Made by a program: the position numbers and the translations under genes
Shown here: positions 1,861 to 48,922 of the stretch, one piece after another
Position numbering within the stretch: the stretch's first letter is position 1
Layout: every line of letters begins with the position of its first letter
The notes under the pieces: generated by a model
Database searches by the model: none
What the model saw: only the letters and a program-made list of their open reading frames with translations
Told to the model about the DNA's origin: nothing
Assembly: GCA_902478725.1 (NCBI GenBank)
Contig: CABSMD010000001.1
Coordinates: 1-48,922, forward strand
DNA length: 48,922 bases
Reading direction: 5' to 3'
Source of the DNA: an uncultured Clostridia bacterium
Lineage (GTDB): Bacteria > Bacillota > Clostridia > HGM11514

Positions 1861-4266
1861 ATGAAGGTTTGGTATCGGCAGGAGGCAAGGGTACACGAGG
1901 AGGCGTTCCCGATCGGGAACGGGAGCTTAGGGGGCATGGTGTTCGGCGGCGTGGAGCAGGAACGGATCTCTTTAAACGAGGACACGCTCTGGTCCGGCCC
2001 GGGCAAACCCGTCGGCAATAGCGGGGCGGCGGCTTACCTCCCGCGGGTGCGGGAGCTTGTAAGGGACGGGCAGTATTACAATGCCCAGACGCTGCTTGAG
2101 GCAAGGTGCCTCGGCAAGGACGCGGGTGCGTTTTTGCCGCTGGGCGACCTCGTTTTGGAGAGGAACGGGCAGGGAACCAGCAACAGTTACCGCCGCACAC
2201 TCGATCTGGATACCGCGACCGTCTCTGTGGAGTATGGGCAGGGCGGCGGAAAGTACCGGCGGGAAATGTTTGCAAGCTTTCCCGACCGTGTGATCGCGGT
2301 ACGGTTGACGGGGGAGGAGTTAGCCTTCTCCCTCCGGCTGGAAAGCGTGCTGCGGCACACTCTTACCTGGCGGGACGGAGTTCTGCTGCTGGAGGGCCGT
2401 GCGCCGGACTTTGTTTTGAGCCATTCCCGTCTGGAGGAGGAGCAAAGCCATATCTATTTTGACCCGCCGCAGGGGCTTACCTTCTGCGCAGCGGTTTTGG
2501 CTGAGACCGACGGGCGGGTCGACTGGGACGCCGGATATGTCCCGGTAAACAGGCCGGGTAGGGCAGGGAAGGACAACGCTGTGACCGGCGGCTATGCTGC
2601 AAACAGCGGACTCACCATCGATGGGACAGGGGAAGTTACCTTGTATATCGCTTGCGCGACCTCGTTTTACGGCGATGACCCGGCTGAGAATTGCCTGAAA
2701 ACAGTACGAAGGGCGGCCGCAAAGGGGTATGAAGCGGTCAAACAGGCACATATCGCGGATTTTCAGGAATTGCTGTCACGGTCTGCACTGGATTTGGGCG
2801 CGGAACCTGACCTGCCCACCGACGAACGGCTGGAGGCCCTCAAAAACGGGGCGGACGATCCCGCCCTCTACGCGCTGTATTACCAGTTCGGGCGCTACCT
2901 GCTGGCTTCCTGCTCCCGCGAGGGGACGCGCGCGGCAAACCTGCAGGGTATTTGGAACTGGAAGCCCAAGCCGCCGTGGAACTCCAATTACACCACCAAC
3001 ATCAACACTGAGATGAACTATTGGCCGGCCGACGTGGCGAACCTGTCCGACTGCTTCTCCCCGCTTGCCGACCTGCTGGGCGGGCTGGTGGAACCGGGGC
3101 GCAAGACGGCGCGGGAGTATTACGGCTGCAACGGGTTCGTGGTACACCACAACGTCGACCTGTGGGGCAAGACCGACCCGGCCGACGGGCAGGCGCGCTG
3201 GGCGGTATGGCCGATGGCGGCGGTGTGGATTTGCAGCAACCTTTATGACCACTACCGCTTTACGATGGACAAAGATTATCTGCGGGATACCGCATACCCC
3301 CTCATGCGGGAGGCGGCGGTATTTATCCTCGATTTTCTGACGGAAGAACCGGACGGATATCTGGCGACAAACCCATCCACCTCGCCTGAAAACGCCTTTT
3401 TTGACCAGGAAGGGAACACCTGCTTTGTGACAAGCGGCAGCGCAATGGACATGAGCCTTATCCGCGACCTGTTTATTAACTGCATGGAAGCGTGTGAGAT
3501 TCTGGATTCCGACAGGGAATTTGCCGTGCGTGTCGCAGACGCTTACAAACGCCTGCGCCCCTTTCAAACGGGAAGCTATGGGCAGCTATTGGAATGGAAC
3601 GGGGAACTCCCTGAAGCCGAACCGGGCCACCGGCACATCAGCCCGTTGTTTGGCATCTATCCCTCCGACGTGCTGTTCCGTGAGGGACCCGAATGGGTGG
3701 AGGCCGGGCGGAAGCTGCTTGATCACCGTTTGAAAAACGGCGGCGGACACACCGGCTGGAGCTGCGCCTGGATTATCAACGTGTTTGCAAGGCTATGCGA
3801 CGGAGAAAACGCCTGCCGCTTTTTAAAGACCCTGCTGACCCGCTCCACCTATCCCAACCTGTTCGACGCGCACCCGCCGTTTCAGATCGACGGCAACTTC
3901 GGCGGGGTGTCGGGCATCGCGGAGATGCTTCTGCACAGCCACAGGCGGACAGAAGGCGAGCAAGGCGGGACGCTGATCGACATTCTTCCCGCGCGGCCTT
4001 TGGGCTGGAAGCAGGGCAGGGTCACTGGGCTGCGCGCGCGCGGCGGATACACGGTGGACATTGCATGGGGCGGCCCATGCATCGGGGAGGACACGGACGG
4101 ACGGCAGGCCGTACCCGCTGCGGGCAAGGCAGAAAACATAGAAGGCCGTGTGCAGGTCAGGGTGCTCCCGTCGCTCGACGGGCCGTTTACGGTGTCCTGC
4201 GGTGGTGTGTCCGTCCCTGTCACAGGCCGGGCAGGGCAGGCGGTTGCGCTTTCCTTTGGCGATTGA
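1861..4266 (+). CDS. Glycoside hydrolase family 95 (alpha-L-fucosidase type)
   Basis: 801-aa ORF. The N-terminus ([16 protein letters not shown]...[13 protein letters not shown]) and later NYWPA, SPEN and DGNFG motifs are typical of GH95. Confidence 0.85.
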
Positions 4267-14149: not shown

Positions 14150-14217
14150 AAAAAGCCTATGGCTTTTTCAGCGTGTCGATAAAGTCGACACGCTCAAAAA
14201 AATGCAAGCATTTTTTT
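14150..14217 (-). terminator. Three consecutive hairpins between the RNA candidate and the BMP RBS (possible attenuator or expression platform)
   Basis: On the minus strand: A7-UGCUUGCA-U7 palindrome (14196-14217), a GC-rich 10-bp stem AGCGUGUCGA/UCGACACGCU (14170-14194), and AAAAAGCC-AUA-GGCUUUUU (14150-14168). Confidence 0.4.
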
Positions 14218-14221
14218 GAAA

Positions 14222-14403
14222 ACTGGTCGTAGAAAGCGCCGCTGATTCAACTATGCAGAAAGTCTATGAAGCCTTGAATCAACGGACTTTCCGGCCCGCT
14301 TCGGCGGAATGAATCCGCCTGCTCGAACGGCATGGAAACTCTTCGTTTCCATACCTTCCGCTGATAGAAGTGGGCTTTTCGACAGTCTGTTTTTTCCTCT
14401 GTC
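14222..14403 (-). ncRNA. Candidate structured RNA (unclassified leader/riboswitch or sRNA), about 180 nt
   Basis: Lies immediately downstream of a TTGCAA / TGcTATAAT promoter. A closing helix between 14386-14372 and 14240-14222 encloses four hairpins. G-U wobbles occur only in the minus-strand reading. Confidence 0.45.
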
Positions 14404-14404
14404 G

Positions 14405-14453
14405 TGTTTATTATAGCATATTCTTATCCATTTGCAAACCCATTCTGAAAAAT
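14405..14453 (-). promoter_or_regulatory. Extended -10 promoter module, copy A (TTGCAA, 16 nt spacer, TGcTATAAT)
   Basis: The -35 is at 14432-14437 and the -10 at 14410-14415 (reverse complement TATAAT), with TG at -15/-14. 45 of 49 nt are identical to 17221-17269. Confidence 0.65.
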
Positions 14454-39097: not shown

Positions 39098-39311
39098 GAT
39101 ATAATATCTTTTATAGATTTTATCCGTCATAGTCATAGGTGCTGTGTAATGTGTTAAAAAGTGTGCTGCTGCCTTCCGCGCGTAAGCGGGAGGGATGGGG
39201 AAAGGGATGTTGACGGATGGGGAGAAAAATAGGGTGTAACAGTTCCCTTTTTGTTTATACACAGGTTATCCATCCACAGTTGTGGAAAAGGCTGTGTATA
39301 ACTTATCCGCT
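39098..39311. other. oriC segment: DnaA-box cluster plus an AT-rich stretch in the dnaA-dnaN spacer
   Basis: One-mismatch DnaA boxes at 39255-39263 (TTATACACA), 39281-39289 (reverse complement TTTTCCACA) and 39293-39301 (reverse complement TTATACACA). Two-mismatch boxes at 39266-39274, 39270-39278 and 39303-39311. AT-rich run at 39098-39125. Confidence 0.6.
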
Positions 39312-40619
39312 GTGCTTGATGTTTTTGGTCAGATCGGTAATGGTATTTTTCAGCTCAATGTCCTGCTCGATCTCCTTTTCGATCTTGTCGCAGGCATACA
39401 GCACGGTGGAATGGTCACGCTTGCCGAAAAATTTGCCGACCTCCGAAAGAGAACTCCCCACAAGCTCCCGGCAGAGGTACATGGCGATCTGGCGGATATA
39501 GGCACACTCCTTGGTGCGTTTTTTGCTCAGCAGCTCTTCCTTTGAGATATTGAAATACCGCGAAACCTCGTTTAACACCAGGTCGTTGGACATCACGATC
39601 TCTTCCGCACGGGAGAAAAAGTCACGTAGCGCTTCCTCCGCAAACTCCTCCGTGAGTGGTTTGTCCGACAAAGTACGGTAGAGGTAGATGCGTTTTAACG
39701 CCCCCTCCAGCTCCCTGATATTGGACTTGATGGACTGGGCTACGAAGGTAATGATCCCGTCGGGTAGTTCCATCTTATTGTCCTGTGCCTTTTTGCGCAG
39801 GATCGCCATCCGCGTTTCAAAGTCCGGCGGCTGGATATCGGTCAGCAGGCCGCATTTGAACCGCGAGGTGAGCCGTTCGGACAACAGCGGTATCTCGGTC
39901 GGCGGACGGTCGCTGGTCAGGATGATCTGTCGGTTCGCCTCATACAGCGTCAAAAAGGTATGGAAAAACTCCTCCTGCGTCCGTTCTTTACCGGCGATGA
40001 ACTGGATATCGTCGATCAGGAGCACATCCAACGACCGGTAGAGGTTTCGGAATTCCTCGTTTTTATCCTCCTTAATCGAGTTGATCAGGTCGTTGGTAAA
40101 CTTCTCACTGGTGACATAGAGCACCTTGGCCTGGGGGTCCTGCTCCAGGATATAATGCCCCACTGATTGAATGAGATGGGTCTTTCCCAGTCCCGCCCCG
40201 CCGTATAAAAACAGCGGGTTATACGCACGCGCCGGATTTTCCGCCACTGCAAGGCAGGCGGCGTGGGCGTATTCATTATTCTTGCCGACCACAAATTCGT
40301 CAAAGGTATAACGCGGATTGAGCGAGCTCTCCGGCAGAGGACGTGCGGACGGCGCCTCCTTTGCCTCATACTCTCCGGCCAGCACCACCGAAAAGGTAAG
40401 CGGCGTGTCGGACACGACGTTTAAGGCGTTTACCAGCAAGGTTTTGTATTTATTTAAAATAGTATTTTTATGTATTTCATTCGGTGCGGATAAAATCAGC
40501 TCGTTTCCCTCCAAAGCCTGCGGCTCGATGGTAGCAAACCAGGTTTTAAACCCGACCTCGGTCAATTCATCCTTTAAAACAGACAGCGTTTTGTCCCACA
40601 AGGCGCGGACATCTGCCAT
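39303..40619 (-). CDS. dnaA: Chromosomal replication initiator DnaA
   Basis: 438 aa. Walker A GGAGLGKTHL, LLIDDIQF, and the C-terminal DnaA signature (RDHSTVLYA). Confidence 0.97.
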   Translation of the reverse strand: MADVRALWDKTLSVLKDELTEVGFKTWFATIEPQALEGNELILSAPNEIHKNTILNKYKTLLVNALNVVSDTPLTFSVVLAGEYEAKEAPSARPLPESSLNPRYTFDEFVVGKNNEYAHAACLAVAENPARAYNPLFLYGGAGLGKTHLIQSVGHYILEQDPQAKVLYVTSEKFTNDLINSIKEDKNEEFRNLYRSLDVLLIDDIQFIAGKERTQEEFFHTFLTLYEANRQIILTSDRPPTEIPLLSERLTSRFKCGLLTDIQPPDFETRMAILRKKAQDNKMELPDGIITFVAQSIKSNIRELEGALKRIYLYRTLSDKPLTEEFAEEALRDFFSRAEEIVMSNDLVLNEVSRYFNISKEELLSKKRTKECAYIRQIAMYLCRELVGSSLSEVGKFFGKRDHSTVLYACDKIEKEIEQDIELKNTITDLTKNIKHSG

Positions 40620-40800
40620 TGGTGATTCCCCCTCGTTTTCGCGCGTAAACTCTCAAAATCAGCCCTGGAAATGAACCACCCTGCATTTTGTCAAAATGAG
40701 GGCGGAATTAATCTTTTATCTATATTATCATATCAAATATGGAGAAAATAATCAATGTTTAAATGAAAATTATTTTATTCTAAGAATTTCCCTTTTTTTA

Positions 40801-40829
40801 TTGACAAGAGGACGGGTTTTGGGTATAAT
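40801..40829 (+). promoter_or_regulatory. Consensus sigma-A promoter of rpmH (TTGACA, 17 nt spacer, TATAAT)
   Basis: TTGACA at 40801-40806, a 17-nt spacer, and TATAAT at 40824-40829, about 60 nt upstream of rpmH. Confidence 0.7.
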
Positions 40830-40891
40830 AAGAACGGTGTCTTTTAAAATTGGAAAAAACATACTGTTTAGAATAGAAGGAGGTGCTGCGG

Positions 40892-41026
40892 ATGCTTAGG
40901 ACATATCAGCCCAAAAAGAGACAGAGGAGCAAGGAACACGGGTTCCGCAAACGGATGCGGACGAAGAATGGCCGCAAGGTTTTGGCCCGGAGAAGACAGA
41001 AGGGTAGAGTCAGGTTGTCAGCGTAA
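40892..41026 (+). CDS. rpmH: 50S ribosomal protein L34
   Basis: Not in the ORF track because it is only 44 aa. Translated by hand as [52 protein letters not shown]. Confidence 0.9.
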
Positions 41027-47440: not shown

Positions 47441-47504
47441 ATGAGATAAAAGAAGAAAGATTTTTGGGGAATGTCGAACGATTCCCTATTCCATTCTGGG
47501 AAAT

Positions 47505-47616
47505 ATATGGTATAATGTAAGCAACTTTGGTTTCAACAGGAAAGTTTCTACCGGTATAAATAGTTTTATTCGTAGAAACTAAAGTTGCTTAGTAGCAGTA
47601 AGATTTATGGTATATT
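47505..47616 (+). repeat. Promoter-plus-hairpin repeat unit N, upstream of noc
   Basis: TGgTATAAT (47509-47516), then a 16-bp stem 47519-47534 / 47575-47590, then a second TGgTATATT (47609-47616). Homologous to the units at 48569-48776. Confidence 0.6.
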
Positions 47617-47653
47617 TGCAGAAGATCTTTGATACATAAGAGGAGGAACTGGA

Positions 47654-48478
47654 ATGGCATTTTTTGGATTCGGGGCCGAAAAGATAGATAAGGACAAGAT
47701 TTATACCGTTGAGATAGAGAAGGTTGTAGCAAACCCCTATCAGCCAAGAAAGGAATTTGACACCGAAGCGATCAATGAATTGTGCCTGTCGATCAAGCAG
47801 TTTGGTATCCTACAGCCATTATTGGTGCGGAAAAAGAAGGATACCTATGAGCTGATCGCCGGGGAACGCCGGCTGAAGGCCGCGACACAGGCAGGTTTAC
47901 AGGAGGTTCCGGTTATCATCAAAGAGATGACCGACGACGATTCCGCAGTGGTGGCTCTGATTGAAAACTTGCAAAGACGGGATTTGTCTTTTATGGAGGA
48001 GGCCAACGCATTCCATCAGTTGGTAAACGTACATGGAATGACGCAGGAGATGCTTGCCGAACGGATCGGCAAGAACCAATCGACAATTGCCAACAAGATG
48101 CGTCTGTTGAAGCTGGCTGACCCGGTGAAGCGGCTCATCAGCGAACACAACCTCACCGAACGGCACGCGCGGGCTCTTTTGAAACTGCCGCATGAGCAGG
48201 CACAGCTTGAGGTGCTCGACCAGATCATAGAAAAAAACCTCAATGTCAAGGACAGCGAGGAACTGATCGAACAGTATCTGTCCAACTCCTTTGCGGAGGA
48301 AAAGCTACCCAAGCGCAAGAAAAAGGCAATGCGGCCGATTGTGTCAAAGGACGTGAGGCTATTCCTTAACACAATCAACCAAGCACTGGACACAATGAAA
48401 AATTCCGGAGTCGCGGCGGTCTCTGAGAAGAAGGAGTTTGACGACCACATCGAATACTCGATCATCATCCCAAAATAA
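47654..48478 (+). CDS. noc: ParB-family nucleoid occlusion protein (Noc-like)
   Basis: 274 aa. ParB box GERRLKAA and an HTH (QEMLAERIGKNQSTIANKMRLLKL). Its position between rsmG and soj matches Firmicutes. Confidence 0.8.
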   Translation: MAFFGFGAEKIDKDKIYTVEIEKVVANPYQPRKEFDTEAINELCLSIKQFGILQPLLVRKKKDTYELIAGERRLKAATQAGLQEVPVIIKEMTDDDSAVVALIENLQRRDLSFMEEANAFHQLVNVHGMTQEMLAERIGKNQSTIANKMRLLKLADPVKRLISEHNLTERHARALLKLPHEQAQLEVLDQIIEKNLNVKDSEELIEQYLSNSFAEEKLPKRKKKAMRPIVSKDVRLFLNTINQALDTMKNSGVAAVSEKKEFDDHIEYSIIIPK

Positions 48479-48480
48479 AT

Positions 48481-48496
48481 TGTTTCACGTGAAACA
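48481..48496. promoter_or_regulatory. parS centromere-like site, TGTTTCACGTGAAACA
   Basis: Perfect 16-bp palindrome matching the Firmicutes parS consensus TGTTNCACGTGAAACA, 3 nt after the noc stop. Confidence 0.85.
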
Positions 48497-48529
48497 AAAG
48501 GCCCAAATAATAAAAAATTTGGGCCTTTT
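48496..48529 (+). terminator. noc terminator
   Basis: AAAAGGCCCAAAT / ATTTGGGCCTTTT stem followed by a T-run. Confidence 0.8.
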
Positions 48530-48568
48530 GTATTGCCTATAAAATTACCCCTTTTATTTTTGATAAGG

Positions 48569-48776
48569 TTATGATATAATATAAACAACTTTGGTTTCAA
48601 CAGGAAAGTATTTGCCGGTATAAAAATTTATTTCAAAGAAAGCGAAGTCTTAGTAGCACTAAATTTTATGGTATAATATAAGCAACTTCGGTTTCAACAG
48701 GAAAGTTTCTGCCGATAAAATATTTATTTCAAAGAAAGCGAAGTTGCCTTAGTAGCACTAAATTTTATGGTATAAT
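48569..48776 (+). repeat. Two tandem promoter-plus-hairpin repeat units (S1, S2) plus a third promoter copy, upstream of soj
   Basis: TATAAT boxes at 48575, 48672 and 48771 (periods of 97 and 99 bp), each with an upstream TG. Stems at 48586-48598/48638-48648 and at 48682-48695/48734-48747. Confidence 0.6.
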
Positions 48777-48805
48777 AAGACAATCAATTGTAAGAGGGTG
48801 TTTCT

Positions 48806-48922
48806 GTGGGCAAAGTGGTAGCGATAGTCAACCAAAAAGGCGGCGTGGGAAAGACGACGACGGCCGTCAACCTGAGCGCGAGCCTGGCGGAGCTGGGAAA
48901 GCGCATTCTTGTTGTGGACATC
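48806..48922 (+). CDS. soj: ParA/Soj chromosome partitioning ATPase (N-terminal fragment, runs off the window)
   Basis: Hand translation from GTG 48806: [39 protein letters not shown], with the deviant Walker A motif KGGVGKT. Confidence 0.85.

Follow-up and report, generated by a model that had tools for sequence, protein, structure and literature searches.

A copy-number-variable intergenic repeat with promoter-like boxes and a conserved hairpin at the noc-soj locus of an uncultured Clostridia lineage

Small dispersed repeats have, to our knowledge, been well studied in a few pathogens and hardly at all in gut Clostridia. The BOX elements of Streptococcus pneumoniae (boxA-boxB(n)-boxC) are predicted to form stem-loops when transcribed, and can affect the expression of neighbouring genes (PMC3049150). 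The Correia elements (CREE) of Neisseria can create promoters, and their RNA hairpins alter the fate of transcripts (PMC2649163). Correia elements end in 26-bp inverted repeats and carry an IHF site and a TA target duplication; they show no tandem amplification and are RNase III substrates. The enterobacterial REP/BIME sequences are dispersed, imperfect intergenic palindromes that are clustered, are transcribed with their neighbours and can protect mRNA ends; REP palindromes are about 35 nt long and G+C-rich, occur mostly in 3' regions in alternating orientation and are linked to RAYT transposases. In Bacillus subtilis, mRNA can be stabilised by 5'-terminal structures, as set out in a review citing work on the aprE leader and ermC (PMC3997798). 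Stabilisers of the aprE/ermC type are single, gene-specific leaders.

The repeat considered here has not been described before and matched no Rfam family. It came to light in a window of 48,922 nt (the whole stretch of DNA analysed), where an array upstream of soj is probably one locally amplified, copy-number-variable instance of a genus-specific repeat that is dispersed over intergenic sites and bears a promoter box and a hairpin. The repeat has the general features of small dispersed intergenic repeats: it occurs at many unrelated loci, its copy number is polymorphic and it folds into a stem-loop. Like BOX, it is short, dispersed and intergenic, with a number of tandem modules that varies between strains and an RNA stem-loop (PMC3049150). 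It falls outside the definition of BOX, however, as there are no end modules of the boxA/boxC type and only one type of unit (with subtypes A and B); a consensus -10 box lies at every junction, the orientation is uniformly sense, and there is no sequence similarity. It resembles the Correia elements in being dispersed, in belonging to the ~100–150 bp size class and in combining a promoter next to genes with an RNA hairpin (PMC2649163). Unlike these elements, and unlike canonical MITEs, it has no terminal inverted repeats: its inverted repeat is internal, running from 4–5 nt inside the left box to about 28 nt short of the right end, and the ends of the element are direct 11-nt repeats of the promoter box. 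Its mismatched 14-bp stem is also short for RNase III. As in the aprE leader and ermC-type stabilisers of another Firmicute (PMC3997798), the hairpin would lie a few nucleotides from the 5' end predicted for the mRNA, but the unit is a repeated, mobile or amplifiable cassette with its own promoter box, is also found in 3' regions, and has a stabilising effect that is putative. It shares with REP/BIME the dispersed, clustered palindromes transcribed with neighbouring genes, but its units are about 98 nt long, A/T-rich and arranged in direct tandem with promoter boxes. The closest systems are, in kind, the pneumococcal BOX and Neisseria Correia elements and, in presumed effect, the Bacillus 5' stabilisers. 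The combination of a promoter box at every unit boundary, a strict sense orientation and a copy number that differs between strains at several loci (among them the noc and soj promoters, next to the replication origin) is unusual.

The window carries, in order, dnaA (39303–40619, minus strand), rpmH, rnpA, yidC, jag, mnmE, mnmG, rsmG, noc (47654–48478) and soj, which begins with a GTG at 48806 and is cut by the end of the window. The noc-soj locus is thus 6–8 kb from the dnaA-rpmH origin region, on its right, and its genes run in the direction of replication. The dnaA-rpmH intergenic region (40620–40892), which presumably contains oriC, lies inside the window and includes an rpmH promoter of the form TTGACA-N17-TATAAT. 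The spacer between noc and soj measures 327 bp. It contains, outside the repeat, a perfect parS site (TGTTTCACGTGAAACA, 48481–48496), kept in contigs L009, L010 and L013, and the intrinsic terminator of noc (48494–48531, plus strand), the stem of which has 15-nt arms and shows compensatory changes in the sister species described below.

The spacer also contains a tandem repeat (48569–48777) with a period of 97, 2.1 copies and 90% matches (Tandem Repeats Finder). Three perfect TGnTATAAT boxes lie at 48572–48580, 48669–48677 and 48768–48776 (TATAAT hexamers starting at 48575, 48672 and 48771), and the first two are followed, after 4–5 nt, by a 14-nt inverted repeat with 38–39 nt between its arms. 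Boxes of this type are found five times in the 48.9-kb window, versus 1.1 expected, and four of the five are at the noc-soj locus; all four are perfect extended -10 boxes, with TG at -15/-14 and TATAAT. We take the box to be the TRTGnTATAAT promoter of Gram-positive bacteria, TRTG being the -16 motif. The sequence-only reading of this region had correctly given the coordinates of the array, the three boxes and the second inverted repeat, the presence of the parS site and the terminator, and the length of the spacer, and its account of the anatomy, with promoter-like boxes, a hairpin a few nucleotides past each of the first two, and parS and a terminator upstream, holds.

All the features of the array are on the plus strand. 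The first box, P1 (TATGATATAAT, 48570–48580), is the native soj promoter box and forms the left boundary of the array; its counterpart is TGTGGTATAAT in the sister species and in L010, and TATGGTATAAT in L013. The hairpin that follows, S1 (arms 48585–48598 and 48638–48649), is a degraded copy, with an A.C at the closing pair, a U.G and a 2-nt deletion in the 3' arm. It scores 92 bits with the covariance model and folds at -11.6 kcal/mol (z = -0.24); in strain L026, the 3' arm of S1 is intact (GAAGTTGC) and the stem is undamaged. The S1 tail and the internal box P2 (TGGTATAAT at 48669–48677) occupy 48649–48678 and are 100% identical to 48748–48777, which holds the tail of the second hairpin and the gene-proximal box P3 (TGGTATAAT at 48768–48776). 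This second hairpin, S2 (arms 48682–48695 and 48734–48747), has 14-nt arms that are 93% complementary with one central G.G mismatch, folds at -21.7 kcal/mol (z = -3.6) and is identical at 27 of 28 arm positions to its orthologue in the sister species, U2. P3 lies 29 nt upstream of the soj GTG and is followed by a ribosome-binding site (AAGAGGGTG); the sequence after it (AAGACAAT) resembles that found after the single native box of L010 (AAACAAAG).

A search for the 17-mer core GGTTTCAACAGGAAAGT revealed a third occurrence, at 47529, within a complete unit upstream of noc (S0, 47506–47616) that had been overlooked in the first reading. The left boundary of S0 is the native noc promoter box (TATGGTATAAT, 47506–47516, plus strand, of the TRTGnTATAAT type), the unit's own box TGGTATAAT being at 47508–47516; the noc box and its upstream context (GGGAAATATATGGTAwAAT) are retained in the element-free L010 and L013. 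The S0 hairpin (47521–47591, plus strand; arms 47521–47534 and 47578–47591, with a 43-nt apical region) scores 101 bits with the covariance model and folds at -20.9 kcal/mol (z = -2.4). All 14 base pairs of its stem are formed, 13 of them Watson-Crick and one a G.U wobble, and the comparison of S0 with S2 shows a compensatory difference (U-A versus C-G). S0 is 85–88% identical to S1 and S2, and its tail (CTTAGTAGCAGTAAGATT) with the proximal, slightly degenerate box (TATGGTATATT; together 47588–47617, plus strand) is 83% identical to the soj copies. Outside S0, S1 and S2, the other 47 kb of the window gave no match to a covariance model derived from the units. The three-unit noc/soj arrangement was seen in seven independent metagenome contigs, and is thus not an assembly artefact.

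Immediately upstream of the noc promoter, the block 47441–47520 is about 96% identical between the two species of this lineage (77/80 positions), versus 84–91% for coding DNA. It contains TGTCGAA, which is Spo0A-box-like, and an inverted repeat, ATTCCC-N11-GGGAAAT, that resembles a split Noc-binding palindrome; part of the block, TGTCGAACGATT, is also retained in L013, the Noc of which is 62% identical. These features suggest a possible autoregulation of noc by Noc and/or a regulation by Spo0A.

Relatives of Noc were found at 97–100% identity, and then none above 64%. The source organism comes from an isolated, uncultured Clostridia lineage of the human gut; contig L034 is labelled human gut metagenome. 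The 97% Noc cluster comprises two species, about 86% identical in DNA. In the sister species, the noc-soj spacer contains two tandem hairpins (U1 and U2); the first soj box is intact, and GATGAAAATTT (not a promoter) and GTATAGAAT stand at the positions of the second and third boxes. As the sister species has both hairpins and lacks the internal boxes, the tandem hairpins are older than the species split and the three-promoter stack is not. The number of units before soj is two in the window, in L001–6 and in L026, and one in L027–29; these three single-unit contigs come from three samples, have their own sequence differences and a spacer of 231 bp, versus 327 bp. The stack of three promoter-like boxes with two interposed hairpins is, therefore, a true feature of the window but not a conserved one, as the sister species is without the internal boxes and strains have one or two units. 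It had been proposed that a strain-specific duplication absent from close relatives would speak against a functional arrangement: the copy number does vary between strains, but the tandem pair is present in the nearest relative.

More distant relatives show what the locus looks like without the repeat. L010 and L013 (Noc 62–64% identical) have a single TGGTAwAAT box before noc and likewise before soj, with similar flanks, and the covariance model found no hairpin unit before either gene. The outer boxes of the noc and soj arrays lie at the position of these single promoter boxes; at both genes the element sits exactly in the native promoter, with the native -10 box on both sides. In L013, a 105-aa open reading frame without a Pfam match (3945–4262) lies between noc and soj, directly after a soj-type promoter box. 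The noc leader of the sister species was considered as a homologous leader past its first ~20 nt and rejected, its fold having a z of +1.35 and no match to the model. Two contigs show further variants. In L041 (379–549; the noc leader of the window species), 44 nt between GGTATAA repeats are missing, and with them the 5' arm of S0, so that the promoter box is joined to the TATAAAT of the loop; this could be either a natural hairpin-less allele or an assembly error. In the single-unit strain L027 (2557–3255), the gene after the unit encodes 232 aa without a Pfam match, versus the 253-aa Soj; a frameshift, a different gene or a chimeric contig could each account for this product.

The unit is about 97–99 bp long and consists of the box, 4–5 nt (GTAA), the hairpin and an A/T-rich tail ending in the next box. 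Over 33 units, the consensus before the stem is TATGRTATAAT-GTAAGCAAC (T-A-T-G-R-T-A-T-A-A-T-G-T-A-A-G-C-A-A-C), and the stem starts 4–5 nt past the -10 hexamer in 33/33, which would leave 0–3 unpaired nucleotides at the 5' end if the predicted start site is at the usual distance. Similarity between loci starts at the box and stops right after the next box, such that n units in an array come with n+1 direct copies of the box, two of them at the outer ends. In the hairpin, a 14-bp stem with conserved ends (GCAAC/GUUGC and UUUC/GAAA) carries an A/U-rich apical region of 35–45 nt. The ends of the stem are invariant, and the four central pairs covary, usually with one mismatch. Stem cells are paired in 91% of cases (38 distinct units), versus 32–59% in slid controls, with changes on both sides of the stem at five pairs (31 cells), and the closing stem is present in the minimum-free-energy fold of nearly all of 36 units. 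Folding favours the sense over the antisense strand (-17.8 against -15.7 kcal/mol; better in 25 units and worse in 11, p = 0.007, although the units are not independent). No covariation-backed helix was found elsewhere in the apical region or the tail, where mutual information reflects only the two subtypes of stem; the tail helix is weak (3–5 A-U pairs, 69% of cells paired) and is not conserved in the sister species. The two stem subtypes, CUUCGG/GCGAAG and UCACUU/AAGGGA, often alternate along arrays. Type A reads GCAACUUCGGUUUC and type B GCAAyUCACUUUUC, and the order is A-B-A or B-A in L060, L052, L061, L062, L051 and L009 (3579–3772). Such alternation would reduce pairing between neighbouring units; the soj array of the window is A-A, its first unit having apparently been converted.

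The comparison of the two species indicates which part of the unit is kept. Four-fold degenerate sites are 67–69% identical between them; against this rate, orthologous stem arms (soj and aroC units) are identical at 53/57 positions (P ~6e-6); identity is 66% in the apical loops and 56% in the tails, the internal boxes being counted with the latter. With stems above the neutral rate and loops and tails at it, the stem is what is kept, rather than a core motif in the loop or the internal promoters. The conserved core proposed in the sequence-only reading is real as a 17-mer present three times in the window, but between species the loop changes at the neutral rate. Conservation between the two species extends to the outer native boxes and to the sequence upstream of them. 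Gene conversion among copies could contribute to the conservation of the stem.

The search for the core in the genome and in relatives, suggested in that reading, yielded the third copy at 47529 and, once structure was taken into account, a family of loci. The exact 20-mer core gave a single match in the GTDB representative genomes, in a Salibacteraceae MAG; it is not recognised by the covariance model and was rejected as a chance match. The genus seems to be absent from the GTDB representative collection, or to lack the exact 20-mer. A gapped pattern fixing only the ends of the stem and the loop-proximal bases, scanned over metagenome contigs, returned 20 loci: the noc-soj locus of the sister species, three chance matches (L053, L057 and L063, inside open reading frames and without a model match) and 16 genuine loci. 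These 16 loci score 50–99 bits with the covariance model (R1), and they have no other similarity to the window except for one unrelated non-coding stretch; 50–106 bits is the range given by about 16 distinct loci of the family. The unit is therefore not specific to soj/parA, contrary to the first reading, given that it also occurs upstream of noc and at about 14 other unrelated loci. Functionally unrelated genes flank it, encoding an IspE-like GHMP kinase, NusB, chorismate synthase (aroC), a YbaK-type tRNA-editing domain, an AraC regulator, a radical SAM protein and a STAND NTPase-like protein. Some contigs bearing arrays (L049, 31% G+C; L059, 35%; L060, 41%) are far poorer in G+C than the window (53%) and encode a STAND NTPase-like protein or a putative recombinase, from which it follows that the repeat also occurs in island-like DNA. 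In Rfam 15, no family reached the gathering threshold in the window and nothing meaningful was found at E <= 10 on the locus, and 15 array-bearing loci gave tRNAs only. No similar element was found in viral contigs or plasmids.

Units occur singly or in arrays of two to four, with a period of 97–100 nt. The relatives of AroC from one unit-bearing contig are 99%, 99% and 93% identical and then at most 65%, the same pattern as for Noc. The window species has one unit before aroC, on contigs from samples that also yield window-type noc contigs, and the sister species has one or four; these aroC look-ups make it unlikely that the 16 metagenome loci are all chimeric. L047 and L060 represent one locus in different samples, with one and three units, respectively. 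The copy number is, thus, polymorphic between strains at soj (1 or 2), aroC (1 or 4) and the L047/L060 locus (1 or 3). Many contigs end within a unit, and the family breaks short-read assemblies at its loci. A repeat of this kind can also pass for gene-specific regulation, as it did in the first reading of the soj spacer.

Of the loci with a co-oriented downstream gene, 10/10 carry the unit in sense (p ~0.001). Three loci have a convergent downstream gene; there, the unit has the orientation of the upstream gene and lies between its stop codon and the terminator, or a little beyond the terminator. The arrays of L047/L060, L061 and L044/L050 have a stop codon on one side and a terminator on the other, or precede a convergent gene, and positions of this kind imply that a role as a 5' leader is not the whole story. 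The first and last boxes share rare variants of the hexamer at three of 11 loci (TATACT at L051, TATAGT at L055 and TAAAAT at L056, the internal box of which is TATAAT; permutation p ~0.0009), which fits either a duplication of the native -10 box at insertion or local homogenisation.

These patterns of placement can be read in another way, as the work of a selfish, non-autonomous element that inserts into extended -10 boxes, duplicates them as its target site and brings no benefit to the host; we hold this to be a possible, although not a likely, account. Such an element would be tolerated since the promoter is restored on both sides, and its hairpin would be what a transposase or recombinase provided in trans recognises, perhaps in single-stranded DNA, which would also account for the strand bias. 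Arrays bracketed by direct copies of the box, outer boxes at the native promoter position and rare variants common to the first and last box are as it would predict, but an 11-bp duplication of one fixed sequence would be unusual, and local gene conversion explains the shared variants equally well. The strictly uniform orientation and the presence of copies in low-GC, island-like contigs by a STAND NTPase-like gene and a putative recombinase also point to mobility; against this, no transposase candidate was identified, the viral contigs and plasmids contained no copies, and the loci gave no clean empty/filled pair. The imperfect palindrome with its conserved central mismatch and the neutral drift of loops and tails are compatible with a selfish origin, but the stems at orthologous loci have stayed alike in both species long after insertion, and a purely selfish relic would have no need of this. 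It is unlikely, in our view, that the unit is instead a promoter-targeting, non-autonomous cassette that integrates into sigma-A extended -10 boxes, duplicates them, expands by unequal recombination and serves as a natural expression amplifier of variable copy number. If it were, arrays of tunable promoters and 5'-protective hairpins would stand before housekeeping genes, including the chromosome-partition genes beside the origin.

For the copy-number-variable, genus-specific dispersed repeat that we favour, we infer promoter activity, a stabilising effect and a mode of spread along the following lines. RNA polymerase would start at each intact box, a perfect extended -10 box needing little else for promoter function. 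Transcripts from the distal boxes would begin 0–3 nt before the stem and would carry a 5'-terminal stem-loop, which would block 5'-end-dependent decay (access of RNase J1 or RNase Y), as known from Firmicutes. In arrays with decayed internal boxes, such as that of the sister species, the next hairpin could become a protected 5' end after cleavage in the A/U-rich linker, and a hairpin in a 3' position could impede 3' exonucleases. Unequal recombination between the direct repeats would alter the number of units and, with it, the promoter dose and the structure of the leader, thereby tuning expression. By analogy with Bacillus, the 5'-proximal stem-loop is probably an mRNA-protecting cap, and a 5'-terminal protective stem-loop is the most plausible of the predicted RNA-level roles, in view of the conserved, covarying stem, the better fold of the sense strand and a stem start 4–5 nt past the hexamer. 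Multiple promoters are not required, given that the amplified aroC array has no good internal -10 box and the soj array of the sister species has no internal boxes. Individual hairpins are dispensable, as seen from the degraded S1, the L041 leader without the 5' arm of S0 and the single-unit strains, and the effect of a hairpin may accordingly be small. The conservation and covariation of the stem could also be kept up by gene conversion, or by a mobility based on single-strand DNA hairpins, rather than by a function of the RNA. Provided that the boxes are active as promoters and that the hairpin does shield the 5' end, the number of units would be a simple heritable dial for expression, and the unit a portable promoter-plus-stabiliser module for the engineering of Firmicutes.

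Small RNAs had been named as an alternative in the sequence-only reading. In this view every unit would be an sRNA gene under its own promoter, and arrays would be tandem genes for trans-acting sRNAs; it is quite improbable. A consensus promoter box does precede most units, the hairpin is stable and conserved, and arrays followed by a terminator alone (L047/L060 and L061) would give non-coding RNAs of 100–400 nt. However, the units have no terminator of their own (a terminator scan of the spacer found none), and the tail hairpin is the weak, non-conserved helix described above; the loops, where a seed would lie, drift at the neutral rate, the sister species and the aroC array have no internal promoters, and most arrays adjoin a ribosome-binding site. 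The further suggestion of DNA-level binding of Noc, Spo0J or another protein of the ParB type to the units, in which TTTC...GAAA would be a pair of degenerate parS half-sites, is hardly credible: the copies in the window do lie beside noc, soj and a true parS, close to the origin region, and GTTTCA is common to the unit and a parS half-site, but the unit contains neither the 16-bp parS nor the 14-bp NBS palindrome (the sole parS being outside the units), its arms are 35–45 bp apart, its stem covaries and tolerates G.U, which is meaningless for the recognition of duplex DNA, it is also found at aroC, nusB, ispE-like and other loci, many of them housekeeping, and relatives with a 62–64% identical Noc are without it.

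Four other candidates were rejected. A decoy for CsrA, the binding motif of which we take to be a GGA loop, does not fit many units, in which GGA is replaced by AAA, GAA or GCA. In an invertible promoter (inverton), the arms would not be only 35–45 bp apart, and in an integron attC site the ends of the arms would fit RYYYAAC/GTTRRRY, which they do not; there are also no gene cassettes between the units. The tiny open reading frame ATG-GTA-TAA inside every box has no ribosome-binding site.

The one non-coding stretch that the window shares with an array-bearing contig is unrelated to the repeat. It lies at 14165–14405 on the minus strand, is preceded by TGCTATAAT (14418–14410) and is 85% identical over 221 nt to L048 (1119–1339), with different flanking genes. 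It had no Rfam match even at E <= 1. The L048 counterpart is bracketed by the direct repeat GAGTATAATAAATGCAGAAGCGTTTATTAT, and the minus strand of the stretch in the window is predicted to fold at -102 kcal/mol (z = -9.2), which makes it a candidate unannotated structured RNA.
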